Origin: Fimicolochytrium jonesii
Lineage: Eukaryota
Assembly (NCBI RefSeq): GCF_025526975.1
Contig: NW_026515668.1
Location: 496,001 to 560,000 of the forward strand
Direction of reading: 5' to 3'
Length of the DNA stretch: 64,000 nucleotides
The position numbers and the translations under genes were made by a program. Within the stretch, counting starts at the first letter, position 1; each line of letters starts with the position of its first letter. This document shows positions 1,873 to 62,591 of this stretch, piece after piece. A model generated the notes under the pieces. The model had not been told where the DNA came from. It searched no databases and worked only from the letters and a program-made list of their open reading frames with translations.

Positions 1873-2414
1873 CGTATTGGTGAACCGCAAGTAGATGTGT
1901 TGGGAGGAGGTGTTTCTGGTGGTACTGTGGCGAGCCCGAGGGTTGACTTCCCAAAGCCCGAGGGTTTGTGGGCAAGCGTCAGAGCAGCGACGTCTGCGAC
2001 GTCTTAGGTCTGGCTGCGTCTGGCTCGTCCGAGTCGTCTGGCGCGTGATGTCGCCTTCTTTCCTGGTTTAATACTCGGACTCGATTCACTGCAACTCCCC
2101 TCCTCCGACTCCTTCCCGTTCCCCGCTACCTCATCCCTGCTTCACCCCCTGTTGCTCGCCCGCATTCTCTATCCGGCCCTGCCCGCTATCCACGAACACT
2201 GCTCTCTCGTCATAGCCCAGGTCTGCTCATTGCAACCCCAGCTGCAGGCAAGTTCCGTCGTCAGCGGCACAGATAGCTGAGTATATATAGAGTATACCTT
2301 CACCTTTTGGACTCGAAAAGTTCCGTAACGAAATAGCACTGCAAAACCGCTACGAAGCCCACAAAAGCAATCTCACCCGCACCGTCACATCCAAACACAA
2401 CCGACTCCCACGCC

Positions 2415-2816
2415 ATGTCCCAACAGTCTGCCCTCCGCCGCATCTTCTCCCTCCGCTCTCCCTACCCCTACCTCGCCGCCGCCACCGCCGGCCTCAGCTG
2501 GTGGACCTCAGTCGTCCTCTCCGGCGTAAACGTTCAAAAGGCGCATTCCGGCATCTTCAAAGCCGTCATGTTCCATCTCCGCCACGACCCAACCGCCAAG
2601 CAACTCCTTGGCACGGACATCACCTACGATGCCAAGCGGGATCATAGCGTGGAAGGAGACGTGAATATGCAGAAGGGGCGGGCGGATTTTAGGTTTGGGG
2701 TGCAGGGGAGTGAGGGGAGGGCGGAGGTGAGGTTTAGGGGCAGTGGGAAGGGGGATAATTGGACGAGTGAGGTGTTTACGGTGGTTACGCCGGAGGGGAA
2801 GACAGTTGAGTATTAA
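2415..2816 (+). CDS. COA1: Cytochrome c oxidase assembly factor Coa1-like
   Basis: Basic N-terminus and one TM helix, then FHLRHDPTAKQLLG..VEGDVNMQKGRADFRFGVQGSEGRAEVRF, typical of the Coa1 domain. Confidence 0.75.
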   Translation: MSQQSALRRIFSLRSPYPYLAAATAGLSWWTSVVLSGVNVQKAHSGIFKAVMFHLRHDPTAKQLLGTDITYDAKRDHSVEGDVNMQKGRADFRFGVQGSEGRAEVRFRGSGKGDNWTSEVFTVVTPEGKTVEY

Positions 2817-3325
2817 GGGGATGAGGATCGAGGAGAGGGAGATGGAACGTGTTGTCGTAAAAGCTCTGCAGAGCATATGAGGAAAAGCGGAAACCCTTGA
2901 GAATAGTGTATGGCATATTTAAGATTAAGAGCTGGGATTTCTTCAATGCGTTTGGAGGATATGTGGAAGGACGATGGCAACCGGCTCATGTGTCAGCTGG
3001 ATAATGCCAATGAACCCATCTGTCCACGAGAACCCTCTATGTATGTGTATCGAAGATCCCCTTGGCGGCTGGTTTGCGTTCGGGCACTCGCCAAGAGAGA
3101 GGATGTCGTCTCGTCGCGACAGGTGCCTTTTGACGCGACTGCCTTGCGGGAGCGCCTTCCCCACTCCCTTTCCTTTCCTTCGCAGACGATCTCCACCGAA
3201 TATCCTTACTTCAGTCGTTACCCAAAAACCCATCTCACACGCTCACATATCCCACCCGTAGGCCTCCCTTCACCGCTCTCATGAAGAAGCAGATTGGCTC
3301 TGCAAAACATTCATATTGAGACACA

Positions 3326-25826: not shown

Positions 25827-26061
25827 TGTTGGAGGTATCATCCTCCCGAGTCCCCAGTTAGGGTTCCCGTAGTTTATTTCCTCACGTGACTCCCCTCTTG
25901 CTTACGCCACGCTTCCGCGTACGGGACTTCACTCTTTTCTTCCCCTTCGGACCTCGCGTCCTCTTCACACGTTAGACTTCAATACATACTTCACAGTACA
26001 GCATTGCTTACTACATAGAGTTTGCTCAGTCATCTGCTTCCTCTGCCAACTACTGCTAAGT
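25827..26061 (+). repeat. 5' LTR
   Basis: TGTTGGAGG...CTAAGT; 11 substitutions versus the 3' copy by manual comparison (~95% identity). Confidence 0.95.
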
Positions 26062-26150
26062 GGTTATGAGTCCTGGCTTCGCCCGCAACTAGCGGACGTT
26101 CCAGGATAAAGAACTCACAGTCTCCAGTCACCGCTCTCTTAGAAAGCACC

Positions 26151-30800: not shown

Positions 30801-31108
30801 TCTTCGGCGACAAATAGGGCAACATCAAAGACCCCACGCCACTCCACATCGACAATCAGAGCGCACGCGAGATTGCCAACGCCACGGCTATTACTCAACG
30901 CTCCAAACACATTGACGTACGCTACCAGAAGCTACGCGACGGCATGGCGGAGAAAGTTGTCGTACTCCTCGACACCGCGACGCAGGAACAACTGGCTGAT
31001 TACTTCACAAAGCCTTTTCCTCCCGAGACACATACGAAATTTATTCAAGCAATTCAAGAAGGACGTGTCGCTAGCAATAGACAGCCGGCGACGACTACGT
31101 CCGAATGA
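27864..31108 (+). pseudogene. Copia pol (protease, GAG-pre-integrase, integrase, chromodomain, RT, RNase H) with premature stops and a frameshift
   Basis: VDSGCTDHM, HQRLGH..CDPC, IHSDLQGP..LRTDRGREY..AERLNRT, QLDIPNAFL, ALYGLKQS, IYVDD, SSTEAEYIA and KHIDVRY. Stops at 29043 and 30441; RNase H region frameshifted. Confidence 0.92.
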
Positions 31109-31819
31109 GACATACGGAACACCCATACCAGGACGGCTTCTGGGCACTATATACGACTTTGGCACCTTAACCCACCACCGTGATAGCTGCCGCTGCCCCC
31201 GCACCGGGGGCTCCACCGGCTCCGGCTCCGCCTCCACCAGGCGGACCCCAGGACTACCTCCCCCGCCGTTTCCGTCACCATCTCCAACCTCACTCGAAGA
31301 CAAATCATCCATGTGCTTTCGCAAGTACTGGAGTCGCTTCATCATCTTGTCTCGCTCCCGTCTCTCGACCGCATCACTGCGGCGCTTTGCCTCTTTCATC
31401 TTTTCTTTCGATATGCTGCCTTTTGCCTTATATCGTGACTTCGAGACTGCATTACATCCAAGGTAGTCTGCCTCCTCCATCAATGCCTCGAATGACCCCT
31501 TCTTTCGCTTCGATCGATCCAGTTTCGCCTTCGTAAACGCCAGGTGCTTCGCGGGGTTCTCATGGTTATCCTTGCGGTACCTCAACGTCGATACCTCCGT
31601 TGCCAATCGAAGAGCTTCTCTAACTCGGGCTTTCAACATCAAAGAGTCGCTTGCGGACGCTGCGGACGATGCGCGCGTAGAGCGCGTAGTCGGTCGTGAG
31701 GGTCCTGGCGGAGGTGCAGCTGGAGGGGCTGCTGGTCTCACCGTCTTACGGGCCGTTTGCTTCTTCTTGCCGTCGCCGCTCTTCTTGCCACTCCCGCCGT
31801 TCTTGCCTCCGTTCGCCAT
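30932..31819 (-). CDS. Antisense basic (K/R-rich) ORF in the copia 3' region, unknown function
   Basis: 295-codon ATG-initiated ORF between pol and the 3' LTR; only its last ~60 codons overlap RNase H. Confidence 0.5.
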   Translation of the reverse strand: MANGGKNGGSGKKSGDGKKKQTARKTVRPAAPPAAPPPGPSRPTTRSTRASSAASASDSLMLKARVREALRLATEVSTLRYRKDNHENPAKHLAFTKAKLDRSKRKKGSFEALMEEADYLGCNAVSKSRYKAKGSISKEKMKEAKRRSDAVERRERDKMMKRLQYLRKHMDDLSSSEVGDGDGNGGGGSPGVRLVEAEPEPVEPPVRGQRQLSRWWVKVPKSYIVPRSRPGMGVPYVSFGRSRRRLSIASDTSFLNCLNKFRMCLGRKRLCEVISQLFLRRGVEEYDNFLRHAVA

Positions 31820-32086
31820 TGTTTCGCGTATCGTGTGGTAGTCTGGGATACGGTAGTTGAGTATGGGGAACGTTGGTCTTACCTCTCTGGGGGTGACTGA
31901 CAGCTGTCTCTTGTTTTAAACTCGCGGCGTTTCCCCTTCTTTCATTTTTACTCTTTCATTTCTTTCATTTTTTAGTCATAGCTATTCATCCCCCCGACCG
32001 CCCGCTTTTCGCGTACGGCCGCACCGCTGTACTCATTGTTTGTTTTTCATCTTTCACTTAGATAGACTCGTGAGTTTGAGTGGGGG

Positions 32087-32321
32087 TGTTGGAGGTATCA
32101 TCCTCCCGAGTCCCCGGTTAGGGTTCCCGTAGTTTATTCCCTCACGTGACACCCCTCCTGCTTACGCCACGGTTCCGCGTACGGGACTTCACTCTTTTCT
32201 TCCCCTTCAGACCTCGCGTCCTCTTCACACTTTAGACTTCAATACATACTTCACAGTACAGCATTGCACACTACATAGAGTTCGCTCAGTCATCTGCTTC
32301 CTCTGCCGACTACTGCTAAGT
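32087..32321 (+). repeat. 3' LTR
   Basis: Direct repeat of 25827-26061. Confidence 0.95.
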
Positions 32322-43996: not shown

Positions 43997-46900
43997 ATGA
44001 CAGAGAAGGCTTGCTCTCAGAGTGAAAGTCTAACCATTCAAGCCCACAAAGTGGATGGGATCCAGATCACAGCCAATGTGCGCAAACCGAAACGGCAGAT
44101 ATCTGTCTCTTTCAAAACCAAGGTAGTGTGGCTGCGAATCACAATCTGAAACACTTTCTGATGGTAAGGCTCATATAGACACTCCTATAGGCACGCCGTA
44201 GCCCTTTACCACATGAGGAGAGAAACTCAGCGGTCAGACAGGAGAAGCAGCCGATATCGAGAGCTTCCAGCCGGATATCAAAGAGACCCGCATGGAATAC
44301 AGGTGGTGGATCAGCTACGGAGAGAATCGCAAAGAAGCCGATCTCGGGCGCCAAACCTTTCATGCAACCTATCGAAGCGCCACATCTCGCAAGGAAGACA
44401 GAGGTATCTCCAATCGAAGACCTGCGGCAAAGTCCTATCCCTACGCTGAATCTTACGGACGAATCACATATATCGATCACAACGGGCTCGACGTCACCCA
44501 ACATAGCCCAGCCATCACTACCATCGGAAATATCACGATCAAACGGCGACCCAGAGCCATGTCCTGGATTACTGGAACTGGCCCCGGCCGCCGAGAGTTT
44601 AGATGCGGAAACTCAGAGTGTCCCAATTGCGTCAGATACCGCTCATATGCCGTCGCCGCCATTCCCAGACGGTCCCAGATCTGTCATCGGTGCATCGTCT
44701 GTCGAGGAGATGTTTTCCGGGCTATCGAGCTTGGAAAGGGAGTACCTATCAGAAGGCAGCCCACAAAAGTCGCGGCATACGGTAACAATGGCCCCAGATG
44801 GAGACTTCAACGCAACCGTGTTAGATTTCCGGAGATCCACTCGATCTGAGCCTGGTCCGTTGCCGACATGCTCGGAGGTTTCCGAGAGCAGTGGAAGCGC
44901 GGAAGGACACCCAGCACAAGATGTCCCGGGGTCATGGGCCTCTGCAAACCTCCCCATTCCATCATTGCCCACCAACCCGGCATCAGTGCTCGCCATTCGG
45001 CATGAGCATTTGAGAGCTGATCCTCCACTACCCCAAAGACACTATGCCCGACCTGCTTCTCGTGCCGAGACGTCCGCGACACATTCCGCTGACTACCGGC
45101 ACTCCATTGATCGACGAGACCGCATCAGACCCAGTACAGCCACCTCGGTTGTATCAACGGATGACAGAAGTGAATACAGCTTCAAGGATGATCCCACGTC
45201 ACGGCGGGTGGACAGGATTCTAGACTTTCTGAAAGGCGTTGAGGAGGATGATTCCAAGAGCGCCGCGGAGCTACACGCAAAGCAAAGTGATTTTGAGAGC
45301 ATCTTGGGCGGAAGTAACAGGTAAGCTTAGAGAAGGGGTGGATATGCCGGCAGATTGTACTTCATCTGATCGCTTATCTTCGTAGCACATCAGGATTGAA
45401 AAGTCAAATGGGGAACTCAGGTTGGCAACAGTTGCGTTGGACCGATTACGTCCGTACTGAACGAGCTCTGACGCATTCTTTAGCCGCAGTGTTCGACGGG
45501 GTCAAGGCCAAGATAATCGGCCAGCAGATGGAATTGGACGAGAAGACGAGAACACTCAGCATGCTGAAGAAAGAGTTGAAGAAGCTGAAGGACAATATGC
45601 GTGAGCAGACACTAGAATCGTATGTGAATCGTCTTGACGGGGGCACTCCTATCTGGTATAATGATGATTAACAGAACCTGACGGACGATGCAGACGGAAG
45701 GAGTTGAAGTCTAAGCTGGCAATGCAGCGCAAGGAGTACGAGACGATCATCAAACGGCATCTAACGTTTATTGACAAGCTGCTCGCCGAGAAAGAGGAAC
45801 TCACAAAGAAGTGTGAGGGTCTCACCGGGGAGGTGAAGGGATTGGAGAAACAGTTCCGAGACAGGGTACTTCATGAATGAAGTACACAAGGCTTCCAATT
45901 GCATTCCGTCTCATCATCGTTTTGTTATCGTAGTCTAGGGTGCTGGAAGAGCAGCATGAAAAGGATCTGAAACAACAGAAAGAGCTTTGGCATTCAGCCG
46001 AGAAGCTCAAGCGGGATAAATGGATACAAGAGAAAACAAAAGCTATTAAAGACCAGACCATCAAAGGACTGGAACCTGAGATCCAGAGAATGCTCGCTGT
46101 AAGCACCTCACCACACGTTCTCGAGAGTGACAGAGCAGTATGCTGATCCAAAGCTCGGGTGACATATCTAGCAACACAAGCAGCAGATCCGCCAGCTGGA
46201 GGAGAAGTACCGGGAAGAAGTTGTGAAAGAGAAAAGCATCCTTGTCGAGCAGCAGCAGCGGCAAATGGTAAGTTCGATGAGACATATCTCTCTTCCACTT
46301 GAACCCGAACTCACGAATGCGGTCTTCTCGTACAGGAAGGCATGCGAGACCGAATCGTCGCAGAGCGACAAAGAGCTTGCGAAGAGGAGAGGGAGTTCTC
46401 AAGGCAGCGGTATCAAAAGCAGCTGGAACGAGATGAGCTGGAGTTCCAACAGCAAAAGCGCAAGCTTCTGGCGGAATTTGACGAGCAAAAGCATGCCATA
46501 TCCGAATCTGCCAAGCAAGAAAGGCAAAACGAAGAGCTGGTCCACCGGAAACAACTGGAGGAGATACGCCGACAGCTTGACGCGGAACGTGAGGCCAAGG
46601 CGCACGCGTTGGAGGACCTGCGTAGGAGGCAGAATGCAGAGGTGGGTTGTTTGGAAACGGAGCCACAGCTTCGGGTTCATCTACCAACTACAAATTTGAA
46701 CGCAGTCGACGACTTTGCGGGAGAAACTGGCCATCGAGAGAGAAGAGTGGCAGGCTCAATACATGGCAAAGCAAGAGGCCGAGATGCGCACGCGTGAGGT
46801 ACCAACCCTCTGCCTGACAACACCGGGAACAGTTCATAGGAGGGAGTCAAGCTAATTTCTCTTGCAGAAACAATTCAAGGAAAAGCTCATACGCGAACGC

Positions 46901-47788
46901 GATAGCGAAATCGAGATGGTTGTGCAGCGCTTGGAATCCGAAACGAGCTCTAATTCAAGCGAAGGAGTGCGAAGACATCGGTTGGAGATTGAGCGCATCC
47001 GGTCAGAGGTTGCTGACGAGATCAAGCAGGTGAGACGAGCGTACCGACTTTGGAGTTTGTTGCGTCCTTACTGATTTGGCATGATAGCTGCGGGATCAGC
47101 ATAGTCTCGCTTTAGACAAGGTCGTGAGCGCCCAGAACGAAAAACGACTGGCGGAAGAAACATTGAAAGGCTTCGAGAAGAAGCTGCTTCAGTTGCAATA
47201 CGAATCCACGGCGAAGGACAATCTGATCCGGGATCAGAAGACCGAGTTGACGAGGCTGAAAGTCGACGAGCAGACTCTTATGGAAGCGATTCGTAAGTTC
47301 ATAAAACATTCATCGGTAATCCGAACGGCATCTGAACATGGTTCTCATCCAACCAGGGAAGGACTTCGTTGACCAAATCGATGCCAAGGAAGAAGCGTTG
47401 ACGCACTGCAAAGATCAACTAGCACAACATGATCAGGAAATGGAAGCAACGCGACACTTGCATAATCAACGACTCGAGGAGTTGAGACAAGAGAAGGTGG
47501 GCCTTTTGTTTGATTGTGTAGAGGATCATGCGAAAAGCCGTTAACCAGCCCAAGCAGGAGCACACAATACAAATGATAGAAGAGCAGGTTCGAAAGGCAA
47601 TGGGCGCTAAGGATCAAGTCATCGGTAGCCTTAAAGCTGAAGCACAAGACCTGGGCATCAAGAACAAGTATCTAGAGCAGATCATAGAAAAGCAGCGACA
47701 GGTACGTTCCCTTTTCGCATCTCATCATCGAAGCTGTGAAGAGCGATTTCCCAACCTTGATGATCCCTCATAGGAACTCCTTACATAA
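43997..47788 (+). CDS. CEP131: Centrosomal/ciliary coiled-coil protein CEP131 (AZI1), multi-exon
   Basis: RHLTFIDKLLAEKEEL, AEKLKRDKWIQEKTKAIKDQTIKGLEPEIQRML, RERDSEIEMVVQRLE. Confidence 0.85.
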
Positions 47789-48057: not shown

Positions 48058-49470
48058 ATGGCACCTCACAAAGGGTGTGGTGGTATGGTGACCCAGCAGC
48101 AACGACGCAAACGAGAAGCTCCTCATGCCATTGTTCACAGCATGGCTATCGAAATTCAGCATACCCACACCAGTGACACCACCGTGCCAAGCCAGAGCTA
48201 CGAGCAACTTACGATAGAGGAGTTTTCTGCGGTGGCCACTGTCAGCTCACAGATCATTGCTCAAGCCAATTCCCACTTTGCTGCATTGACATACATCTGC
48301 GAACGGTTGAAGAGAACCTATCCCCTTCTCACATCAGGAGAATGCGGGTCTGTAACGCCCCTGATAGCCTCTCTACTTCACGAGTCGAACATTGCGCAAA
48401 CCGCTTCCAGCAACATTCGCAACGGGGATATTGGAGGCAACGCCGCGCTGAGGGGCTGGGAACCTCTAGTCCTGCTGCTGCAGACACAACCATCGGCGCC
48501 AACTTCAGACCGCGCGACGCCCGTCTTCAGGAAGATCATGGAGATCCACGCACTTGGGTTCTGCGATGTGATCAGTGATAGCATTCTTATAGGGGCACTC
48601 TGGAAGCGAAACCAGGTCCCGGGAACTCTGGAGCCGACGCATGTAGAAACATCAAAAGCCATCCAACACCTTCTTTCCACCAAGCGTCGAATCTACGCAC
48701 TCTCCCTACGCCGCCGCAAGTTTGGTGTCCTACGTTTCGACAACGCCAATGATGAGAACACAACCTGGACGGCAATGTGTGAGCAGCTAGCAGAACTGCC
48801 CACCAAACGGAGCATCCGATCCACATCAATTATACCTATCTTTTCAAATGCAAAGCGAAACCTCTACCGCATGCACATTGATTGGTGCCCAACAGACGAC
48901 GTTTTCCCTCTTTCGGTGGCCTTTCTATCGCAAACTCCTCAATTCCATCGCCTATCGCAAACTTCTCGTGCACTTGTGTGCACAACGGTAGAATCTGTTG
49001 CATGCACGCTCAACCCGGGGCTTCCACATATGACTCGCAGGGCTGGGACTGAGTCAACCTCTGATGGCGCATCCAACCAAACCAGATCACATCAACGGCA
49101 TCGCAGTCTTAGAGTAGGATTCTACGCCAATTTGCTAGGGGATGTGGTGGAGAAGATGGATCTGGACGACGATGAGCGGGCTTCAATGGTGATCGACCTC
49201 GCCATCACACCCCAATCCCTCCCCTGGGAGGAGCAACCAGTCAGCGTAGCTTCCGTGCGCCTAGTCTTGGATCAACCGGGTGACAGGCTCATAGAGGCTT
49301 TGTCCGTCAAACAAAGAGAATCAAAAGAATCAGAGAAGGAGACAGAGGGAGCAGGCACGCCAGTAAAGTTCCGGAAGTTTACCATTGAGCAAGGCGATGA
49401 TGGGAAACTCCGGTTGTATGCCGAGAAGCGTGTGCGAATGCGACCCGCACCCAGAGAACAGGGTCGATAG
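48058..49470 (+). CDS. Intronless 470-aa orphan ORF convergent with the Fanzor gene
   Basis: Long open frame with no introns, unlike most host genes here; no family recognised. Confidence 0.6.
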   Translation: MAPHKGCGGMVTQQQRRKREAPHAIVHSMAIEIQHTHTSDTTVPSQSYEQLTIEEFSAVATVSSQIIAQANSHFAALTYICERLKRTYPLLTSGECGSVTPLIASLLHESNIAQTASSNIRNGDIGGNAALRGWEPLVLLLQTQPSAPTSDRATPVFRKIMEIHALGFCDVISDSILIGALWKRNQVPGTLEPTHVETSKAIQHLLSTKRRIYALSLRRRKFGVLRFDNANDENTTWTAMCEQLAELPTKRSIRSTSIIPIFSNAKRNLYRMHIDWCPTDDVFPLSVAFLSQTPQFHRLSQTSRALVCTTVESVACTLNPGLPHMTRRAGTESTSDGASNQTRSHQRHRSLRVGFYANLLGDVVEKMDLDDDERASMVIDLAITPQSLPWEEQPVSVASVRLVLDQPGDRLIEALSVKQRESKESEKETEGAGTPVKFRKFTIEQGDDGKLRLYAEKRVRMRPAPREQGR

Positions 49471-49530
49471 TCGATAGATAGTCACGACCCAGAGCACCCA
49501 GAGAACAGGGTCGACAGTCGATAGATAGTC
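49441..49530. repeat. Tandem duplication (37-bp core, 1 mismatch) spanning the ORF stop; each copy has a CGACCC..GGGTCG stem
   Basis: GCACCCAGAGAACAGGGTCGA(T/C)AGTCGATAGATAGTC at 49447-49483 and 49494-49530. Confidence 0.85.
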
Positions 49531-49684
49531 GCATTGTACACGCTCTCACGGAAATTGTAGTGGTTCAATAATTTTAATATACATTACACATTTGAGAACA
49601 TCTACGCCCTCACCAATCATCGGAGGGAAGGGCGTGAATGCACTAGACTACTAAGAAGAAGGAGATACGCCGTGCAAATATAAT

Positions 49685-52600
49685 CTACGGTCTATCCAAG
49701 GGAATGGCATCTGGCTCAGTGACTGCCTCTACGCCCTTCGGATTCCACTCTGATATTGCCTTGGCCATGACAAGGTTCAAATTGCTACGCGGTGCATTCT
49801 CGTCACGGTCCATTTTATTCCCGCAGTTGATGTCTGAACAGAGGAATCTCCGACCTCGTAGCTTCCCCGAAAGGCGCTTACACTTGAAACAGGCCTGTGT
49901 GCTCCACGCTTCACTTGGATGGACTGTTTGTCCACATCCACGAACAGTCTGCCGATGCCCCAACGTCTCTCTGAGTGTCGCATGCTGGAGCGTCATGAGA
50001 ATTCGCTTGTTGAGCCGACTGAGCTGACCAACTCTCCTTTTCACTAGTTTTGGCACATCAAATGTGGGTAGAAGCACAATGTCGAACTTCTCGAGGAAGC
50101 TGGCCGTATGAATATGCAAGTGGTCGATCTTGTTACCAAGGCTGGCACGGAGTTTTTCGATTTCTTCAACGTGTTCCTCGCATACCCTCTCTCTCAGTTC
50201 CTGTTTTTGTTTGGGGATCACATCACGTAGCTGACAAGCGTGGGAAAGAAGGCCATCTCCAATGGTATCCTGAAAGTCCCTCTTGAAGATATCGCCGTCT
50301 AACAACGATTCGAGTGCTATGGCGTGAGCTCTCCATTTCTTCATCCGAGCATCGACCTCTTCTCTCAACTTCTCAATGTCAGGAACCCTCTCCAACATTT
50401 GACCAATGTGAGATTCGATCTTGTCCATCTTGCGGAGGGCCGGTGTGATGTATTCTGCGGATGGTCTACCAAATAGGATTGTGTCTCCATATGAAGTATA
50501 CCCGACCATAAACTTCTTGATGCCGGGATCGATGGAGATCATGGTCGGTAGACCAGGTATGGTGCTCCACGGCGTCTGCGTGTTCTGCTTTCGACGCTTG
50601 ACCCAAACATTCCATGTTCGCTTGACCCCTCTGAATGCTTCCGGGTCTAGGTCAGGGTCAAACTCCCATGGAATATAGTGTGTCTTTTGGCTGATAGCAG
50701 CCAGCCTTTTCAGGTAGAGTGCCTTGTACCGTGCACGCCTCGGGGATGTTGATGGGTATCTTTTTCCTGCTTCCAGAATCCGTTGGTCTCCGTCTTCAAT
50801 TGCCGGTGCAAGTGGAAGTTCGATCGCCGGTATGGGCAGCCTCTGCAGGGAGAGAGTGGCTTTCCACTGCCCCTTGTCATCCCGCGCATTCCGTGTCAGG
50901 TACAATGTCCTCCATTCGTAGTCGATATCTTTTCCTTGATAGCCACCCATCACGGATCTCTCACACGGGAATGGCAGCACATATCCACGTTCTCCGAATT
51001 TGATAATGTAGTCACTTGACCTCATCTCGTAGATGGTCAGCCTGCGGATGGTTGTTCTGTGCCGCCCGGGTATGGCATTATCTCGCATGCTTTGCCCACG
51101 CCCCAAAGTCGTCCTCAAGCCCTCACTGGTCTTCACAACCAGATCCAATTTTGCTCTAAAATCGACGGTGAGCCTCGCCTTGTTCCAGGCCTGACTCCCA
51201 AAGTGAAGGGCCGTCGAGTTGGCAACAAAGAAGTGCTTGGCGTACAATCTCGTCATAATGGACTCAAGATCTGTCAGCCGTTTTGTGGTTTCTAGGAAGT
51301 TGCTGGCGTGGGTCGCAAGTCTGGTTGTCATCGCGCCCAGGTCGGGGCCTCTGACTGTGGTGCCAATGATTTTCAGACCATGGTGCTTCGACAGTGCAAC
51401 CTGCAACTCCACAATCGATTTCACGCATTCAATGCGTAATTTTTGCACCAGGCTCATGTCCAGTGTCGCTCTCAAATCCACCGTCTCTTTTTTATCCACG
51501 ATGTCTTGATTTCGTTTACTGGCTCGGCCTGGATGTAGAGTCCAGACAACAGATTGTGCAAGGAATGCGATTGCGTTCTCCATTTTGACGAGTTCCTTTC
51601 GACGATTTGCAGAGGGATCAACTGACTCTTCCGCTTCGGGTGTTGCCTCGACCGCTTCGTTGTATGGGTATGGCAGTGACCCGTGTGTCAGGGCGTCCAA
51701 CACAAGAATGAATGTTTTATAGGCTGCCGCGCCTGGATTCCTCTGCCCGTAACAGGTTCCCTTGACCATTGCCCGATTCTTAACCGTCTTGCGGGAAAGA
51801 AGGAATTTCAGAGCAATCTTCTGCTCTGCCGTCACTTCCATTGTGACCGAGTGTTTTTTAAGAACTGCGGTGGCTTGCTTGATCGTCAGAGACAGTGTGA
51901 TGGAAGAGGTTTGGGTGGTGGTGGTGAGATCCAGTAAGTCGTCCGCCGCCCGCTTCCATTCGTCGCCCGTGTGCGGGAGCTCCACGTCTACCGTAGGATG
52001 GTTCTTTGAGGATAATTCTTCTACCGTCACAACTTTGTTCGGTGTGGTGGCACAGATCCGAAAACATTGCGCCTTCCGTTCCCACAGAGCCTTGAAGTTC
52101 TTCTTGCCGCCTGTGCCATCAGGTTCCCCATAAATACGATCCAGCTCAGCGGTATCCTCTGCACCGACAATCTCCATTGCCTTGGCTTTGTTGTCTGTAT
52201 CATCCCAATTCAAAAGGTCGATAAGGTGGTGGAATATGTGCTCGCATAGTAGGGCCTTGTCGTTCCCCTTTGCCCACTGTAACGATCGTGAAGGTGCAAT
52301 CATCCAGCACTCTGCGGGCTCCTCCGAATCGCGTTCAGCCACCACTAAGAATGCGGGGGATCTCTCTCTTCTTCCCGTCAGATCCTTGATCTTGTCTACC
52401 AGATCCTCCACATTCAGCTCCCCGGCCGTCCGCACTTCCAGCCAGCCATTACGCTCATAAGGGTCGGCCCATTCCCTCCCGCGCTGTGCAAGTAACAACA
52501 CGAGGCGGAATAATGCTGTTTCCGCAGCGGCAGGTGGCTTCTTTGAGAGGTGCTCTGCCCACGACCGCAGGAATATGAAGCGGTCTGGATCATCCACTCC

Positions 52601-55600
52601 ATCTGCAAGATCCCACTGTTGTAGTGCCGTAAGAGCCAGCTGATGTGAGGCAGATGGACGCCCGAATGCAGTGAATATGCCGTTCACGGTTGCGTCCTTT
52701 GCCGAATAAATTGTGTGATTGGCGTTGACGGCATGCAGTATATCCTGCAAGCTGGCTATTGATGATGATGCAGAGGTATTATTCGGCGAACATCGAATGG
52801 TGCCGTCCTGAGCTACAGTGACGGTAGGTGCAGTCTGGTGTGCATTGAGAAATGCCATGGCACTGGTGAGTCCCGAGAACAGGCGCAGTGTGACCGCATG
52901 TAGGAATGCCATAATGCGATTGAGTTTCGCCACGTCCCTCAATCGCTCCAATGCAATCTGTTCTGTGAAGCCGCCTTCGTCTTCCCTCAATGCCTTTGCT
53001 TCCTTACTTCCAGATCCCATGCCGAGCCCTTCCATTCTACGCGCCCTCACAGTCACAGGAGCACTGATGGATCGAGCGATGAAGCCCGCATCCGCAAATC
53101 TGCTGCCAATCTCCCCGGCGGCACCTATGCGTGCCACCCCATGCTTTAGCCGAGTAACTTCCTCTGGGGTAATAGTGATCTCCTCCTGAAACGGCATGGT
53201 CTGAAATGCTTTACGACATAGCGACATATCAGATGAGCCCATCAACTCCTTCGCCTTCTTTCGATCTAAGAACTGATTCCCCCCGAGCCTAGCCTTCCAG
53301 AACTTCTTGATGTCCGGAAGATACGGCACCATCTGAAAAGGAAGCATCGTGTCGGCGTCCGCGACCAGCTGTTCCCATGCCTTCCACATGCGCAGGATGC
53401 GGAACTTTGGTCGGAGGTGTTGGTAAAGGCTTTCATGGAGATCCGCGGCTCCCCACTGCGGTATGAAGCCCAGGACCCGTGCTTGCAACTCCGTAAATGT
53501 GCGAACAATCAAGGCCATGATTCTCCGTAACGTCGCGTCGTCTGCAAACTTTGTGCTCTTCCCCTTTCTCTGACGCGGCTTGTAGTTGTGGAGGATACCA
53601 TCGATATGGAGCACATCCCCCATGTGGCGAGCAAGAAGCGCGGGGTGGAAAAGGGGGATGATGGTGACGGGTCCCGTTGACGGGTCAAATATGTGCTCGG
53701 GCAATGCGGAGTTTTCGCTTTGAATGTAGTATCTCTCTCCAAAGTTGTATGCTACTGATCGCCCATATGTCACAACAATCTTGACATCCAAGCCGGCGAT
53801 TTTGCAAAGAAGGAGGGCCGTGCTGTTCAGCCCTTTCATAACTAATGGGTCGATTCCGGGTGCGGGTGGTGTCGGCTCTGATGAGGCCGGAACGGCAAAC
53901 GTGACATGACGTTTTTGAGCCCCGGTATACTGCGATGAAGTGTCGGGTCCAGTTGGCTCGCATCCCGGGGGAGTCTCTGATGGCGGGGCATTGGATCCGG
54001 TAGTTGAGGAAGGTGGGCCACCCCCGCGTACGCTGTTTCTGGATTCGGCGGGCTGAGTGGGCTCGCATCCCGACGAAGTGGATGATGGCGGGACATCTGA
54101 TCCGGTAGTTGAAGAAGGTGGGCCACCCCCGCGTACACCACTCCGAGATTCCCACCTAGGTTCCGTCGGCTCGCATCCCGACGAAGTGGATGATGGCGGG
54201 ACATCTGATCCGGTAGTTGAAGAAGGTGGGCCACCCCCGCGTACGCCACTCCTAGATCTGAGCCTGCCCCCGCCTACGCCACTCCTAGATTCCCACCTTG
54301 GTTCCGTCGGCTCGCATCCCGACGAAGTGGATGATGGTGGGACATCTGATCCGGTAGTCGAGGAAGGTGGGCCACCTCCCGCCGGTCCAATGCGGTGCGA
54401 CGGCATCCTCCCGATGGACGACATCCTAGTTGATGTAGTGGCAACTGTATTGTTTGGCGTGGAGGGGCTCCCGCTGTCCTCACATTCTCGTTCTTGTATC
54501 TCCTCATCTATCGTTCCTGGTTTGGGTTCCGGTAGAACATCTTTACCGCGAGGGTTATTACCGGGATGGCGTTTGAGGGCACTGCAGTACCAGGACTGCT
54601 CGAGTAACAGATGAACGACGTGATTCCCAGGCTTGCACAAACCAATATGCTTTGGAGCATCCGTAAACTTCTTCAGAAAGCGTCCAGTAAACGTACGCTT
54701 GTTGATGCCATATTTAGCTTTGACTGGGCAGAACAGCATCTCGATGACAGTCGGTAGCATCGGTTGGGCGGGAATGTCCATTCTCAGGGCATTGACAGTC
54801 TGCAAAGTCCGTGCAAACGGAAATGGAAACCCGAGATGCCTGTCGATGAGGGCGCATGCTTCTTCGATCTGCCCCTCTTCAAGTTTCCTCAGCTCCAATT
54901 GCAACTCGTGTAGCATATGGATGGCGTCCGGGTGCTTGACAAACGTCCAAAAGAGTGGTGCATATCGCTGACATTCCATGGGGGACGGGACAAGACCCTC
55001 ACCATCCAGGCATTGCAGCGTCCCGCCCATTGTGGTGAAGTCTGCCAGGTTTTGTGATTTAAGGTTGTATATGTGGGAGCCCTACGACGGGCGTTTGGTC
55101 AGTATTGTGGGAACACGCGTCAGGTATATGAGATATGAGACTAACCTCTGGCTCGGTGTCGGATGGCACTTTAGTACTTTCAAGCCGTGCCCGCTTGGCA
55201 GCTGCATGCCTCTCACGGTCCCGTTGGTTCCGCTGAAGGCGCTTTTGCTTCTGGTCCTGCAGGGGTCCGTAATTGCACATTAAATTACTTGCAGAACGCC
55301 CCCCTCCGACCATTCAACCAACCTGTGGCTCCTCGTCAGATGTATTAGCGGAATCCGTACCCTGCATCTCCTCAATGGCACTGGTGCTGAACCCCGCCTC
55401 TGCGTCAGGGTTCGTACTCTCAATCCATCCCCGTTTACCCAGCGCACGCGCACGCTGGTCCCGTTGGCGCGTGTTTCTTTGAAGACGCTTCTGTCTCTTG
55501 TCCTAAATATGTTCGGCATATCAGCAAAACATGTCAATGGAACATAACACAACCACAATCAGGCAACTAACCAGTGGTTCATCATCCGAGGTCAAACCGG

Positions 55601-56468
55601 TACCGGGCATATCCTCATTGGCAGGAACGTTGATATCAGTGAAATCCATCCTGTCGTCGTCGCTTCCTCCAACGTCGGATTCGGATTCGGATTGAATTGC
55701 GTCGGAATCAGACAATACCATTGCAAAGTCTGAACCAGGCTCAGGTGAAATGGACCGGGTTTGTATTTCATCGGGTTCTTTGCCGTTGCCCATGTCAAAA
55801 AGATGCCGTAGCTTGGTGTCTGCGGCACGGCGCTTAGCTCTACAGGCGTTTTCAGGTTCTGTGTCGGAACTTACGCGGCGCTTCTTCGATGCTTTCGTTG
55901 CGCGATACCCGCGCACTGTTTCCCACCCATCGTCCACATTGTCCAAGGCTTGAATGGGGTCCCCAGTGCTTTTTTTGACCAGCACATCGTAGTGATTCCC
56001 ATCAAAGGTAAGGAAGTATGTGCTGGCCGCAGGTCCCATTTCCGGCGTGACTTTATGGAAGTAGTAGCCTCCACCTCCATCCGTTGGGGCAATGAACACA
56101 CCGAAGTTGACGAGGTAAAGGTTGGCCAGTGCACCCAGCGTAAGGTCTCGTCCCCACACGCCACCCCTCCCCATGTCCTCAAGAAAATGCTCAAAGCTCA
56201 GCGGTTGACCGTCCCCTTGATACCCTTGATCTTCTTGTTGAGTGGCAAGTAAGGTCCTGTCAAACGCATTCCGATAATTAAGCCGTCCATCAGCCTCCGC
56301 CTCCATATGTTCAATGAGCGCTCTTCTGACGTCGCCGTGTTGCTGTTGGTTGCTCCACAGGCAGAATGCAGCCGCGCGAAACTGGCAGTTCCCATCCCCG
56401 ATAATCCCTAGAGGGCCGCTTCCCCGCGGTAGCGGAAGCCGCACGGCACCGGGATTGTGGCTTGACAT
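49685..56468 (-). CDS. OTU deubiquitinase-Fanzor (TnpB-like RuvC) fusion, ~2194 aa; exons 56468-55572, 55502-55323, 55256-55146, 55081-49685
   Basis: OTU: GDGNCQFRA..WG..NHYD. Three phase-0 GT..AG introns (69, 66, 64 nt) join it in frame to the 1781-aa ORF. C-terminus: ISIDPG (RuvC-I), VLLPTF, SEAWSTQACFKC (shifted Glu plus Zn finger) and CSDINC..MDRDENA (RuvC-III). Confidence 0.85.
53952..54385 (-). repeat. Coding tandem repeat, four copies of GGGPPSSTTGS(D/N)xPPSxTxxGCEPT
   Basis: Near-identical units of roughly 100-135 bp, visible in both DNA and protein, frame preserved. Confidence 0.9.
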
Positions 56469-56670
56469 GTCGGTGAGGGCGTATTATCGGAGTTCGACGG
56501 CGGTTGGGTGAGGGAGGTGAGGGAGAGAGGTGAGGGAGAGAGCTAGCGTCAAAATTCGACAGCCTCTGACGGAGGAAAGTCTCACGCGCATGCTTACCTC
56601 ACAAACAAACATACAGTATCTAACAGTGGAATTACACCCTTCTGGTACTGGATTTGCATTCTGATAACAC

Positions 56671-56742
56671 TGGCGCTTGGCACAGTTGAATCTTGCTTTC
56701 CCTGCAGACGTGCAGGTCGCGAGTTCAATTCCCACTCCCAGA
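56671..56742 (+). promoter_or_regulatory. Degenerate tRNA-like sequence / putative Pol III type-2 promoter
   Basis: A-box-like TGGCACAGTTGA (56678) and B-box GAGTTCAATTC (56721) at tRNA spacing (T8 to G53 = 45 nt). CTGCAGA sits at the anticodon-loop position and AGGTC at the variable loop. Stems are mismatched, so this is not a functional tRNA. Confidence 0.45.
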
Positions 56743-56984
56743 CAACTTCTTTGTTCAGATTATGACCCCTGTCGCACTCGGTGCGGCGTGGTAACTACTG
56801 TCGCGCTCGGCGCTTCGTGGGTGTTAACTGAACAGCACAACTACAATAAGTACCGCAACAGAAAGAGCTACCTTGTCCAATCCTCAAGTCCTTATCCAAG
56901 TTATTGACGGGATGCCTTTTTAGATGTATATGAACATGAACATGTACATAGCGCTTGTGGGTCTTTACAATGTTTTGTTTGCTC

Positions 56985-57116
56985 ATGCATACGTATGCAT
57001 ATGGGAACGTTTATGCATCAATATATGCGTAAATATACGTAAGTTCGTTCTAAGTACGCAGTTTGCATTATGCATGCATAAACGCATGCATAAATTGGAA
57101 CGCGTGGCCCGTAGTG
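56985..57116 (-). mobile_element. CACTA-type terminus with ATGCAT-rich subterminal repeats, ~650 bp upstream of the OTU-Fanzor ATG
   Basis: Minus strand reads CACTACGGGCCACGCG; the first 12 nt are identical to the left TIR at 20054, and the subterminal motif matches the 20054-33786 element. No inverted partner found. Confidence 0.75.
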
Positions 57117-57586
57117 TCTAGATCCGTGGGCTGTTGTTGGCTTTGCGCACGTTGACTCGCGCGGAAGGTTGTTATTGGCTGTTACTCACTCATGTACTGT
57201 ACAGATAACGCTGCGAGGATAACAGGTGAGGCTCACGCTCGCAGGGCTGTGGTTTCGGGAGCGGTCATCGATTTCACGGAAGTCGTTGCAACTCTCAACG
57301 TCCTCCCCTGCGGTACGTACATACGTAAATACTTAAACATCCTTCCCTACATCCTCCCCAGTGCCTGTGCACACACAACCGATGTATCATCGCCTCCTCC
57401 TCACCGATACGGCATAAAGCAAACCCGCTACCTTACAAGCACAACACCGCGACGGCTCCTTCTCTTTTCTGAATTCAATTCTTAACAACAGGTGGGCGAG
57501 GCGACTGACAGCACCGCGCTCGCAGTTGCCGTTGACCAGCATCTGACCTGACCTTCCCGTCTCATAACAGGCATATTCCCAGCATT

Positions 57587-59285
57587 ATGAGCGACTTTGA
57601 CGATTATGACCTGGACTTTCAGTCAGAACCGGAACTGGAATTCGATGTGGAAGACAAAGAGGCTGGCTGGGAATGGGAGGATAAGGCGGAAGACAAGGAG
57701 GAGGAAGAAATGATTGGAAAGGCACTGGAAGCGGCTAAAGCTCTCAGAGAAGAGCACGCAGAACAGAGGCGGATTGAAAAGCTGTGCTGCGAGAACCCGG
57801 GCGACGCCGAGCTAGACACCCTGCGGCCAATCCAGACCGATGCGGATCTCCAAAGGGAGTACACACGGTTTAACGAGTTCCTCTTTGAGTACAACCAGCT
57901 CACCACCAAGGTTGACGTCACGTGGTGGAAGAACATGACGTACCAGCCGGGAAGTTGTGGAGAGCACAGGAACGGGAGTGGGCACTATATCCATCTCAGC
58001 GAGCCAATCATGAAGAAGAAGCCCCGGGTGGAGATTGTGGGGGTCTTGCTGCACTGGCTCCTACACCTCTGGATCCAACTGCACATGAAGAGACCGCCCA
58101 TGGATGACAAAAAGAAGAGGCATAAACACCAATTCCACTCGGCGGTGGAGTGGGTGGAGGCGAGGGTCGATATTGAGATCCCAATCTCCCACAACATCTA
58201 TGCTAAGGACGCTGCGGAGTTGCGTGTTCACAAGTGGCGTTGTACAAGGTGTGGAAGGACCTACTCCTCGGCACGGAATATGGCGCCGAGCAAGTTGAAG
58301 GATGAGGGCAAAGGGTGTAGCCCTTATGCGGCGTGGCACAAAAAGAAGTGCGGCAAAGCAGATGCCTTTGTGAAGACCGCGGATAAGACAGGACCTCTTC
58401 CACTCCCCCCAGGAACCAAGTGGGTATTTGGCATAGTAAAAAGCATACGTTTGCCCAGCGTCTAACCAATCGGTTATCCCAACAGATTCCCAGCCACCGA
58501 TGCGGAAAAGGAGAGGGCCAGGGAGAAGGGGAAAGGAAAGCGGACCGCGGAGGAGGAGAAGACAAGCGGAAAGGACAAGAAGCAGAAGGCCACGGCAACG
58601 ACTGGCCCTTCACAGGCTGTGACCGACGGAGTATATCATGAACGGCAGCGGAAACTGCTTTGCGGATTGCATGCGGTCAACAATGTCCTCCAAGGTCCAA
58701 TATATACTCAAGCAACCATGAACAACATCGGCCGCGCACTGGACATTGAGCGTGGAACAACACCCGCACCCGGAGCCCGAAGCACGTACTGGAGCCCGGA
58801 TGGCAATTACGATGTGGGCGTCCTGGTACGAGCCTTTTCGAATCAAGGCTTGCAAATGGCACAACTGGCGATCAACAACACCTCCACCCCCGCGGACACT
58901 GAGAATGCCTTCATAGTGTACCACAACCACCATTGGGTGGCATACCGTCGTGTTCGTGGCGTGTGGTATAACCTCGACTCCCTTGCACCTACCCACCAGC
59001 GGATGGGCACACAAGAGTTGGTAAGTGCTATTTTGAGGGCACCTTTCTATGATTGAGAGGTTCTTTCAACCATACCTGATGCTGATTGTGATTTCACAGA
59101 ATCACTTGCTTCGCAGGTTGGCCACACGTGGGTTTTATGTTTTCGCGATTCGCGGCGCCCTGCCTACGGCCGCTGCCACTGGTGCTGCCGCCGGTCCTTC
59201 CGCTGCCGCCGGTCCTTCCGCTGCCGCCGGTCCTTCTGCTGCCGCCGGTCCTTCCGCTGCCGCCGGTCCTTCTGGTGCTCAGTAG
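57587..59285 (+). CDS. SprT/Spartan-like (HWxxH, catalytic Glu lost)-Josephin deubiquitinase fusion, ~517 aa; exons 57587-58419, 58486-59020, 59100-59285
   Basis: SprT: YTRFNEFLF..IHLSEP..VLLHWLLH..HKHQF..WRCTRC..HKKKCG. Josephin: YHERQ..LCGLHAVNNVLQ..GNYDVGVL..HHWVAYRRVRGVWYNLDS..GFYVFAIRGALP. Introns 58420-58485 (CTAAC branch point) and 59021-59099 keep the frame. Confidence 0.8.
59184..59273 (+). repeat. 18-bp coding tandem repeat x5 (AAAGPS)
   Basis: GCTGCCGCCGGTCCTTC(C/T) units. Confidence 0.9.
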
Positions 59286-59505: not shown

Positions 59506-60274
59506 AGGGTGCAGTTTAGTGGGTTTTCCGCGCGTAGCCCACCGGATCCCAGAACCCACCAAACTACACTCAAAAAAAAACCCGCCAAACTACACACAAC
59601 CACTTCCTAGTCCTAAGCGGGCCTCTATCTCCTGTTCTTCCGAAATATCCACGTTCTCCCGCTCAATTGCTTCAGTGAATGCCTGGTCGTAGTCTTCTTC
59701 TGCCATTTCCAATTGAAATTCCTCGCGATCTTGGGGACCAAGGGTACTCCTCTGCAGCGCGTAGGGTGGGGCTGGAGAACTGCTCCATGCTGGGCGTGAT
59801 TTTGGGTTTGGAATTGCACCGGCTAGGGTGATTTTGGGTTTGTAAATGCGAGATGGTGGGTCAAACGCGCGCGCAAGCAGTGTACAGTACTGTAGTTTGG
59901 TGGGCTGTGGACGCGCAGTAGAAGCAGTGTACAGTACAACGCGCGGAATTCAAAACTTGTTTCAGACGTTGCGAGGATATGTTTTTCCCCGTGACTTCAC
60001 ATTGTATAACCGTGGAAGAGGATATCACACATGAATTTACGCACCTGATCTCGTTTGACGTGATTTTCTTAACTGTTTCAAGCTTGAGAGGATGCAGATA
60101 TTATGACGTGAGACAGCTGTGAGGAGCACCATCAGAGCTGTTAGAAACAGATGTGGTATGGACATCAGGGGCCAAAACTCGCTCACGACGTGTTGGACCA
60201 GTTGGGGTTGTACGTAGTTTGGTGGGTTCTGGATCGGGTGGGTTACGGGGGCAAAACCCACTAAACTGCACCCT
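59506..60274. mobile_element. Non-autonomous TIR element (MITE-like, ~770 bp)
   Basis: ~60-bp imperfect inverted repeats AGGGTGCAGTTTAGTGGGTTTT..CCAGAACCCACCAAACTAC at both ends. No convincing ORF; TSD not evident. Confidence 0.75.
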
Positions 60275-60333: not shown

Positions 60334-60482
60334 TAACCCTAACCCTAACCCCTTAAATGCGTTGCCTGGCGTCATTGACTAGTCTCAGTCTGGTCTTATG
60401 TCCCTAACCCTAACCCTAACCCTAACCCTAACCCTTATAAGCCGTTACTCTAGGGTTAGGGCGTAACCCTAACCCTAACCCC
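60334..60482. repeat. Interstitial telomere-like (CCCTAA)n clusters, with one inverted TAGGGTTAGGG block
   Basis: TAACCCTAACCCTAACCC at 60334, (CCCTAA)5 at 60402, and TAGGGTTAGGG followed by TAACCCTAACCCTAACC at 60451-60482. Confidence 0.85.
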
Positions 60483-61504
60483 TGTAGATCTAAGTTATGT
60501 TGTGATGATAAAGGACGAATGGGGCGGGGCTTCTTCTGCTTCAGGTGCGTGTGATTGAATAGATTGGCGGGGGGACGTATAATTGACATTGTTGACATTG
60601 TTCGATGGTCCATTGACAAAGGCGTCAATGTCATGAACCAGGAACGTGGAGTAGAGTAGAAGGGACAATTCCCCAGTGGCCGAATACACCTCTCAGGGGT
60701 ACACCTGATACATTTGCGGCGGCTGGAAAAACGGAAAAAGGAACCTCATGGAAGGCCAGTTATCGATCAACTTGGCAAGGAAGGCGGCGAATGACTTCCA
60801 AGGCTTTGAAGCCAAGCATAAAAGGAAGCGGCCGTTGGCATCCCCCCCCTTGTTTCTTCGGGGGAGAGCTCCCCATTGCATATACAACACAACCAACGGA
60901 GACCGCCAGGTATATACCCGCCCTATTCTTCATGAGCGTCGAGAGAGAGAACCGCAAGTCTAACCCATTCCTCTGTTAATACAGTATCAACCCACAGACC
61001 TCGCCTCATAGCGAGAAATGTGCACCGAATACGTGGCGTAAGGACCTCAGTTGTGGGTATGTATGACATTTGAGTGCCGCAGAGTGGTTGTCTTGAAACA
61101 ATGGCTAATGGACGCTACTCTGAACTGGGAATAGGGATGTTCGCACTCGGTCTCGGTTGCCAGTCAAGGTCAATTGGTCAAGACAGAGAGTGAGCCAGAA
61201 TTATGTCGTAGAGATAGTTCTGTGCGTTGGCTGTGGAAAACCCCCCCGTGCACAGCATCCTGCACGTATACCCATAGGATAGCATAGTTAACCCCATACA
61301 GTGCCGAAGGGCATGGGTTTAGTCAGTCTTGTACTGTACACCGGTGATGACGTTATAATCGCACTGCTGACGTGATGGACGCGTTTTGCTTCCGACGTCG
61401 AATTTCGACGGATGCCTGCGATAAGGGAACTCTTGATTTGCATCGCCCGTTCACAGGAGCTGTTGGAGGCATAGATTCTTTGCGTCAATCGCTAATTCAG
61501 TCCA

Positions 61505-62591
61505 ATGTCCTTTCTCAATCTCGAGGACATCTCGTATCTGTCGCTGGCCGGGTTCACGCTGAATGTTGAGGAAAGGTCAGCACTTCGGTCGTCCCTCCAA
61601 GTGAAGAAGGACCAGGAAAAGCTGGATGAAATATGGCTGTGGGGAAAGGTTTTGGGGGTGCAGAGGGATTATTTAATTGCGCAGGCCGTGGGCGATAATC
61701 CGTTTGCCAGGAAGTTCTTCTACAGGTATGGATGATGTAGGCTGCAGAACGCTGAAATGTCTCGGAAGCTGATGAAGCATCTATCCTCTCCAGTATTGAT
61801 CTAGTCAACTGGTTGTTGCTTCCGGAGGTGGCGCCCGCGGATGTTGATAAGGTCAATCAGATTGAAGGACGATTTTCTGGCGACCCGGCTTTCGAGTATG
61901 CTATTGGTGTGTCTCACTACTCCTCATTTGGAAGTTTTACGACGAGCCCCGTACTCACGCCGAAACATGATGGTCATAGCGGACAAAAGTCTACCGGATG
62001 GGGAGCAGGAGGCAACTGTGAATGAAGAGAAGCGTTTAGCGGCTACGGTGGCCTTGATTAACTACGAGACCGAGGTGGTGCCGCGTGGAAGTTACTACCG
62101 TGACAACCTGCACAAACTACGAAAGAACCCCGCTTTCGATGGTAACTTTAGCTGCTTTCGCAGATGCCGACATCGCACATCCGTTTATTGAACCTCATTG
62201 TAATCGATCAGGCATTCCAAGATCTGAGCTCGGGCAGCTTACCAACTACCTTCACTTTCGGGAGGGGTTCAACATCAACAGAAAGACACTACTCGAGCGA
62301 GCGGGCGCTTTTGACGAGAGCATTGATATCTTCGAGAGTATTTCCGGGGACAGTCCGAAAGGTGCGTGCCATCGCCACGCAAATGGCAAGCGCGCTTTGT
62401 ACTGACGAAAGTCAATGGTGATCTCTCCAGGTGTCTGGTCATGCCAAACCGAGCGAATGGGGTCCGTTGTTATCCTGCGGAATCTGCTGTGGCCGGGCTA
62501 TACATTCTTTCATAGCTCCAGTCCGTCTCGCTGGGGATCAATGTACTTTGGAACGGGGCAAAAGAACTTGAACGTTGGGTTCATGTTGTAA
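61505..62591 (+). CDS. RSPH9: Radial spoke head protein 9 (flagellar), multi-exon
   Basis: LWGKVLGVQRDYLIAQ, IEGRFSGDP, EEKRLAA..VVPRGSY, LRNLLWPGYTFFH..MYFGTGQKNLNVGFML. Confidence 0.9.

Follow-up and report, generated by a model that had tools for sequence, protein, structure and literature searches.

A predicted spliced gene of Fimicolochytrium jonesii that would join an OTU deubiquitinase domain to a Fanzor2-type RuvC nuclease domain

The 64,000-nucleotide stretch of Fimicolochytrium jonesii DNA analysed here (the window; contig NW_026515668.1, positions 496,001 to 560,000 of the forward strand) carries on its minus strand, from position 56468 down to 49685, a gene predicted to consist of four exons and to encode a single protein of 2,194 residues, with an OTU domain at the N-terminus and a Fanzor2-type RuvC domain with a zinc finger at the C-terminus. 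The fusion had been put forward in an earlier note on this DNA (the original prediction), which read it as an RNA-guided nuclease carrying its own deubiquitinase. Characterised Fanzors are RNA-guided enzymes that bind and cut matching DNA sites (PMC10530073, PMC11832414), and the explanation we tentatively prefer, at a probability of roughly 45%, is that the spliced protein would cut DNA by RNA guidance through its C-terminal module while stripping ubiquitin through its N-terminal OTU domain.

The four exons (56468-55572, 55502-55323, 55256-55146 and 55081-49685) measure 897, 180, 111 and 5397 nt, each length being divisible by three, and when joined they give 2,194 residues and one terminal stop with zero internal stops. 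Predicted exon 1 (55572..56468, residues 1-299) holds the OTU domain, two basic clusters (KKRR at residue 195 and KRR at 212) and an acidic tract. Exon 2 (55323..55502, residues 300-359) would carry copy 1 of a basic/acidic coding repeat and exon 3 (55146..55256, residues 360-396) copy 2 of the repeat head, while exon 4 (49685..55081, residues 397-2194) is an unbroken frame. The three predicted introns lie in phase 0. Intron 1 (55503..55571, 69 nt, donor GTTAGT, acceptor TAG) contains in-frame stops and a candidate branch site, CTGAT, followed by the first AG; intron 2 (55257..55322, 66 nt, GTTGGT, CAG) splits the repeat at the position of intron 1; and intron 3 (55082..55145, 64 nt, GTTAGT, TAG) has CTGAC and then the first AG. 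Their lengths of 64-69 nt fall within the range of host introns, which is ~60-77 nt as read by eye. The original prediction had joined the OTU exon in frame to an open reading frame (ORF) of 1,781 residues through three such introns, and their coordinates, donors and acceptors are borne out in the sequence, the splicing itself being a prediction.

Introns 1 and 2 are very likely real, as judged from the repeat that they interrupt. The tail of exon 1 resembles that of exon 2 (a score reached by 13 of 5000 shuffles), the head of exon 2 resembles that of exon 3 (0 of 5000 shuffles), and the ends of introns 1 and 2 are 47-53% identical without gaps; these likenesses imply that an exon-intron unit was duplicated and, hence, that both introns are very likely real. 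The fusion of the OTU domain to exon 4 hinges on the junction at intron 3, whose donor is identical to that of intron 1 and at whose acceptor the long frame opens precisely. If intron 3 were retained, translation would meet a stop ~30 nt ahead of the next ATG, a distance so short that a separate promoter would have no space. The exon-4 frame extends over 1,798 codons from stop to stop (1,781 when counted from the first Met), which at the local base composition would be expected by chance at ~10^-34.6; the five alternative frames over the same stretch hold 40-87 stops each, and the codon-position GC pattern of exon 4 is that of host genes over its full length, the repeat tract excepted. The contrast drawn earlier between this unbroken frame and the decayed transposable elements around it holds as well, with no internal stop here and a nearby long terminal repeat (LTR) element split by in-frame stops. 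The four-exon spliced fusion is thereby supported as the most economical gene model, and a fused mRNA is probably made.

The C-terminal ~270 residues (49775..50575, minus strand) are supported by profile search, modelling and fold search as a predicted Fanzor2-type RuvC with a helical insert and a zinc finger, nearer to Fanzor2 and pro-Fanzor than to Fanzor1. The RuvC-I motif is DPG, with D1914 at 50528-50530; an inert residue, P2068 (50066-50068), occupies the canonical Glu position; and the relocated E2120 (49910-49912) is followed after six residues by CxxC (C2127, C2130). A second Cys pair, C2144/C2149, is spaced CxxxxC as in several relatives, the four Cys together spanning 49823-49891, and after this C4 zinc finger comes RD, with D2156 at 49802-49804. 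In PMC10711439, the fingerprint of Fanzors is DPG combined with a relocated Glu. Every motif that the original prediction had read here, namely SIDPG, LLPTF, the relocated Glu before CxxC, the second Cys pair and DRDENA, is in its place. The TNB zinc finger family (PF07282) matches at E 2.8e-5, its 24.6 bits lying slightly below the cut-off of 26.3.

Searching with the last 538 residues gave 1,247 matches at E <= 0.001 (HMMER, 1.84 billion representatives), and among the best 149 other matches DPG is present in 136, Glu-x6-CxxC in 145 and an LLPxF-like motif in 121. Recognisable homology is limited to residues 1899-2165. These 149 matches are 135-793 residues long (median 440), and the claim that the 2,194-residue protein has about four times the usual size is sustained; known Fanzors average 620 residues (PMC10530073), with Fanzor2 at ~500 and Fanzor1 at up to ~800 (PMC10711439). 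A profile built from the domain and 21 divergent relatives matches the mimivirus Fanzor2 structure 9b0l at E 5e-31, the runner-up standing at 3e-12; TnpB and Cas12 structures are far behind, and no recognisable Fanzor1 is among the 60 matches listed. In an alignment-based model of the last 739 residues, confidence is confined to model residues 451-720, which correspond to the RuvC with its helical insert and to the zinc finger. Foldseek places 9b0l first with this model (E 1.4e-9) and the Fanzor1 SpuFz1 at rank 38 (E 8.7e-4), and superposition on 9b0l gives Z 17.1 with a root-mean-square deviation of 3.3 over 207 aligned residues, a fold result that depends in part on the profile result, the model's input alignment being rich in Fanzor2-like sequences. 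A phmmer search with the last 538 residues against the PDB returned chance-level matches only, and a single-sequence fold of them had a predicted local distance difference test score (pLDDT) of 33. Whether the C-terminus aligns to TnpB/Fanzor RuvC had been named beforehand as decisive, and it does align, with 9b0l best by profile and by fold and the triad intact, in line with the Fanzor2-type call. By all RuvC criteria tested the predicted protein is a member of the Fanzor family; it is not an IS607-type element.

Between RuvC-I and RuvC-II lies a predicted helical (REC2) insertion of ~60 residues (50222..50425, minus strand, limits approximate), seen in the motif spacing and in a hidden Markov model (HMM) alignment. 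The Asp-to-Glu spacing is 206 here, compared with a median of 142 in 133 matches; it falls within the 125-275 range given in PMC3627910 and, because of the helical insert, outside the 120-160 search pattern of PMC10711439. In the alignment the insert is common to the window protein and to chytrid relatives. When 23 of the Fanzor matches were looked up, 7 had names, all of them chytrid: four from Phlyctochytrium bullatum (KAJ3095413.1, KAJ3118187.1, KAJ3110822.1 and KAJ3110655.1), two from Geranomyces variabilis (KAJ3165855.1 and KAJ3175053.1) and one from F. jonesii itself (KAI8820402.1). All share the lengthened helical region and the divergent RuvC motifs with the window protein, and they differ from it in being 236-759 residues long as annotated, in lacking an OTU domain in the five scanned, and in an identity of 20-27% over the alignment. 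The annotation may cut these genes short, as it does that of the window.

In a quick tree of 136 cores, built without named Fanzor1 or Fanzor2 references, with 14 sequences that lack a motif left out and with long branches, 124 typical sequences are separated from 12 divergent ones, the window protein among the 12, at a Shimodaira-Hasegawa-like approximate likelihood ratio (SH-aLRT) support of 93; placement inside the divergent group is weak (support 30). A chytrid-associated divergent subgroup therefore likely exists, on the evidence of this tree and alignment. One match in the typical group is of the cyanobacterial pro-Fanzor type. Window proteins scanned against the DNA of viral and metagenome contigs found no relative, and a DNA scan with a five-sequence alignment found 80 loci of ordinary TnpB/Fanzor2, with a longest matching frame of 688 codons, the 30 best of which all favour the typical over the divergent profile. 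Divergent Fanzor2-like proteins from three chytrid genera (P0004, P0007, P0009, P0028, P0070, P0077 and P0117) are annotated as hypothetical; in P0004 and P0028 DTG replaces DPG, and P0009 is without zinc-finger motifs.

At the other end of the protein the OTU family (PF02338) passes its Pfam cut-off (E 8.1e-6, 26.8 bits against 23.3). The catalytic residues D25 (56394-56396), C28 (56385-56387), H159 (55992-55994) and D161 are all in place, and weak PDB alignments to OTUD7B, OTUD1 and OTUD5 (E 0.03-0.7) position the Cys and His. The Asp-Cys-His set that had been claimed for this domain is thus intact, and the domain is probably an active enzyme.

The ~1,000 residues in the middle of the protein match no family in Pfam or the other family scans, and an atlas search with exon-4 residues 405-1200 gave no usable match. 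They include a Ser/Gly/Pro-rich tandem tract (53913..54379, minus strand), where a unit of 105-141 nt recurs in 3-4 copies, with length steps among them that are all multiples of three. A weak lead is a stretch at residues ~824-884 (53618..53800, minus strand) that resembles a uracil-DNA-glycosylase (UDG)-like fold in its C-terminal half and reaches E 0.21 for Pfam PF03167 on one of nine fragments; a purpose-built profile was equalled by 7 of 1000 shuffles, and hhalign gave a probability of 35.5% that none of 150 shuffles attained. The motif was spotted by eye prior to the statistics and is treated as a lead only. A profile of 19 bacterial sequences did not find the N-terminal half of the fold, which holds the catalytic motif. 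Weak phage and plasmid matches to the stretch were set aside: of the four fetched, three lie antisense to the annotated gene and the remaining one falls within a hypothetical protein.

In the mechanism that we prefer, the gene would be spliced to give a single nuclear protein, imported via its basic repeats. Its Fanzor module, with a diverged WED/REC lobe somewhere within residues ~1376-1898, would load an RNA from the 3′ flank, behind the stop codon, and then bind and cut the matching DNA site. A long flexible arm would hold the OTU domain near the target, where it could strip ubiquitin from proteins in reach; it might counter ubiquitin-based host control at the bound or cut sites, or act on the giant protein itself, and both possibilities fit equally.

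The stretch where the WED/REC lobe would be expected (50576..52144, minus strand) was examined by language-model search, HMM test and pLDDT. The first of these, with residues 1376-1896, gave look-alikes at 0.90-0.91 that have few features in common, some from transposase-fragment families, which we take to be N-terminal pieces of TnpB. A WED-like motif at exon-4 residues 1070-1092 was dropped, as it did not rise above shuffles. Past the stop codon, where Fanzor guide RNAs sit, the 3′ flank (49400..49684, minus strand) could fold into a candidate guide-RNA scaffold, a long stem at ~49410-49550 around a 37-nt duplication. The stem has a folding z-score of -2.46, matched by 3 of 200 shuffles, and the whole 321 nt one of -1.49; Rfam found no match on this stretch.

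Several observations weigh against the fused, RNA-guided protein. Intron 3 has no repeat-based support, and an in-frame join would arise there with a one-in-three chance. The public annotation comprises the last 421 residues only, and both the 1,781-residue ORF and the unspliced OTU ORF are absent from the public protein collection. Word-limited searches found no relative among proteins of 988-3147 or 1330-3795 residues, nor any for residues 397-1396 in the size class of 550-1750 residues, and the named chytrid relatives are annotated at just the 236-759 residues given above. Four Fanzor2 WED/REC sub-profiles score at shuffle level, here and in four chytrid relatives, and pLDDT is mostly under 50 in the presumed WED/REC part of the model. 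The candidate stem is second-best of 165 windows, 6 of which reach z <= -2.4, and part of its hairpin lies within the end of a convergent ORF. The zones flanking the gene show no exact inverted or direct match longer than 12 nt. Among the neighbouring ORFs, Pfam and PHROGs recognised neither a transposase nor a serine recombinase family, though small spliced exons could escape such a scan. The claim of an RNA-guided nuclease consequently stands in part: the Fanzor2-type RuvC with its intact triad favours it, whereas the WED/REC lobe is not above shuffles and the guide hairpin is modest. On balance, the sequence leans somewhat towards an active RNA-guided nuclease.

These observations bear on four other explanations. 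The locus might hold two genes or transcripts. One would encode an OTU protein, with 424 residues if intron 3 is retained or 315 if intron 1 is, and the other a separate Fanzor of 1,781 or 421 residues started from an internal Met. Such an arrangement would agree with a public model of a 421-residue Fanzor alone, with the short open tail and stop met on reading through intron 3, and with the failure of our searches to find a fused relative. We nevertheless consider it unlikely, given the gap of just ~30 nt between the read-through stop and the next ATG and the start of the long frame right at the intron-3 acceptor; the annotation, moreover, gives no account of ~1,400 open codons that show a coding-type base periodicity, and the 421-residue product would have 125 residues ahead of the RuvC, presumably too few for WED and REC. 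A polyprotein, in which the fusion is made and the OTU domain acts as a processing protease that frees a Fanzor of 700-800 residues, is a less likely proposition. Three VRGG motifs in the disordered tract and one RLGG in exon 4, which we take to resemble the ubiquitin tail, would speak for it, yet the GG motifs sit inside a recently expanded Gly-rich repeat, and at the probable start of the Fanzor module there is none, save VMGG at the annotated Met. Precedent for such processing comes from Helentrons, where cleavage of Rep/Helicase/Endonuclease subunits has been proposed as the OTU role (PMC4067079).

The protein might otherwise be a domesticated nuclease that kept its triad, lost RNA guidance and took up a host role, such as DNA-protein crosslink or chromatin repair alongside a neighbouring SprT-Josephin gene. 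The undetected WED/REC lobe, the missing element ends, a cluster that is a singleton at 90% identity, the host-type introns and the weak UDG-like half domain would all suit this idea. Against it, the middle region has no orthologue among annotated chytrid proteins of the searched lengths, the relatives are 20-40% identical and scattered, as mobile genes would be, transposase-fragment families are among the look-alikes of residues 1376-1896, and the SprT-like HExxH of the neighbour is without its Glu; we rank domestication just below the polyprotein, as quite improbable. Very improbable, finally, is a recent functionless chimaera, formed when a Fanzor inserted in frame into an OTU gene and with decay still to come. 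The architecture was found in no relative by the word-limited searches, as a newly made chimaera would predict, but there is no close Fanzor-only parent (the nearest matches are <=42% identical over short stretches), the repeat tract has diverged 65-93% between its copies with the frame kept, and codon-position bias extends along the entire frame. The spliced OTU-Fanzor protein is the reading that we retain.

The SprT-Josephin neighbour is predicted to be a spliced, divergent gene on the plus strand (57587..59285; exons 57587-58419, 58486-59020 and probably 59100-59285), head-to-head with the OTU-Fanzor gene at a distance of 1,118 nt. Its exons 1 and 2 join in frame free of stops, and the last exon was read by eye. 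The SprT-like domain (Pfam E 1.6e-10) reads HWLLH at HExxH, so that the catalytic Glu is missing; in the Josephin domain (Pfam E 1.7e-26; Josephin-2 structure 6pgv, E 1.8e-16) the Cys, His and Asp motifs look intact, and an AAAGPS repeat tail is present. No description of a SprT-Josephin fusion was found in the literature searched. Together with the helical insert and the chytrid relatives, this neighbour goes beyond what the original prediction had noted. Tail-to-tail with the OTU-Fanzor gene lies a publicly annotated, intronless orphan ORF of 470 residues (48058..49470, plus strand), the convergent ORF whose last codons overlap the hairpin; it is a singleton cluster in the public protein collection and matches no Pfam, PHROG or NCBIfam family. 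Together, these three genes occupy 48058-59285 and are flanked by a coiled-coil host gene on one side and the radial-spoke gene RSPH9 (~61500-62590) on the other. RSPH9, the short introns of housekeeping genes and the chytrid origin of the named Fanzor matches indicate a flagellated fungus-like host. Because two deubiquitinase families adjoin a Fanzor, the arrangement suggests a cargo-laden mobile island of ~11 kb between two host genes, of which the orphan ORF is possibly a part.

The multi-intron coiled-coil gene (44000-47787, plus strand) resembles by eye what we take to be a centrosomal CEP131-type protein, a likeness for which Pfam gave no support. On the RSPH9 side, a 769-nt element (59506-60274) lacks any recognised coding domain and has terminal inverted repeats of 44-62 nt that are ~90% complementary, and interstitial telomere-like TAACCC arrays (60334-60481) contain a short inverted GGGTTAGGG stretch. 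The LTR element, at 25827-32321 on the plus strand, has 235-nt LTRs that are 95.3% identical and a frame broken by stops. It combines a Ty3-type capsid match with a copia-order pol, an unusual mix, and has a chromo-domain match between integrase and reverse transcriptase that is below the cut-off (E 6.6e-5).

The fusion is of interest for how a Fanzor benefits its own element in eukaryotic cells. If the fusion is confirmed, a tethered deubiquitinase would point to the control that the host exerts through ubiquitin over chromatin, repair or protein turnover as the limiting step, and it would offer a natural model of RNA-guided delivery of a chromatin-editing enzyme. The locus also illustrates that annotation can shrink such genes to one fifth (421 of 2,194 residues), so that they would escape surveys that consider annotated proteins of 350-800 residues only.

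Whether the fusion had been described before was left open by the original prediction, and the answer is divided. In the literature searched, subscription papers not included, no paper describing an OTU-Fanzor fusion was found. The main text and 12 of the 14 supplements of PMC3627910 do not mention OTU; chytrid Fanzors are listed in the tables of PMC10711439, from which the start of this protein, the three accessions tried and an OTU motif are all absent; none of the chytrid genera looked for appears in the supplements of PMC10432273; and the ten domain accessions shown in the preprint supplement of PMC10530073 do not include PF02338. Data S1 of PMC10530073 (3,655 rows), on the other hand, contains two giant predicted Fanzors with an OTU-like start, Fanzor50_3025 (1,392 residues) and Fanzor50_2614 (2,183 residues), and full novelty is thus not to be claimed, as these two already sit unremarked in a published table. 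By eye, and within their first 400 residues, both begin with an OTU-like ADGNC, as the window protein does with its own motif of this type, beyond which these N-terminal 400 residues look unrelated to it. They are labelled unclassified and are undiscussed in the passages of PMC10530073 searched, and Data S1 also has apparent mis-joined gene models. An OTU-like start in two giant Fanzor entries that are unrelated suggests that the OTU-Fanzor pairing recurs.

Among mobile elements, the closest parallel for the OTU domain lies in Helentrons, of which OTU-like cysteine proteases are known cargo with conserved catalytic residues (PMC4067079, PMC6431247). Their companion there is Rep/Helicase, whereas a Pfam scan of the ORFs here found no Rep or helicase family, although a non-autonomous Helentron would show none either. 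The Fanzor2* proteins of non-IS607 eukaryotic transposons, as described in PMC10711439, share with the window protein the placement of a Fanzor2-type nuclease outside an IS607 element; they are ~500 residues long, in elements with their own terminal inverted repeats and target-site duplications, and no repeats were found here. SpuFz1 of Spizellomyces punctatus (PMC10432273) is likewise a chytrid Fanzor with a rearranged RuvC, but it is of the Fanzor1 type, has 626-663 residues in a single exon flanked by terminal inverted repeats, and trails Fanzor2 by a wide margin in the fold search. Closest of all is ApmFz2 of Acanthamoeba polyphaga mimivirus (PDB 9b0l; D324/E467/D501, PMC11832414), with which the window protein shares the RuvC fold, DPG, the relocated Glu, the C4 zinc finger and RD, at a Glu-to-Asp spacing of 36 against 34. 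The viral protein has 520 residues rather than 2,194, and the gene described here is set apart from it by its predicted introns, the OTU domain, the lack of an adjoining IS607 serine recombinase, an unrecognisable WED/REC lobe and the ~60 extra residues between RuvC-I and RuvC-II.

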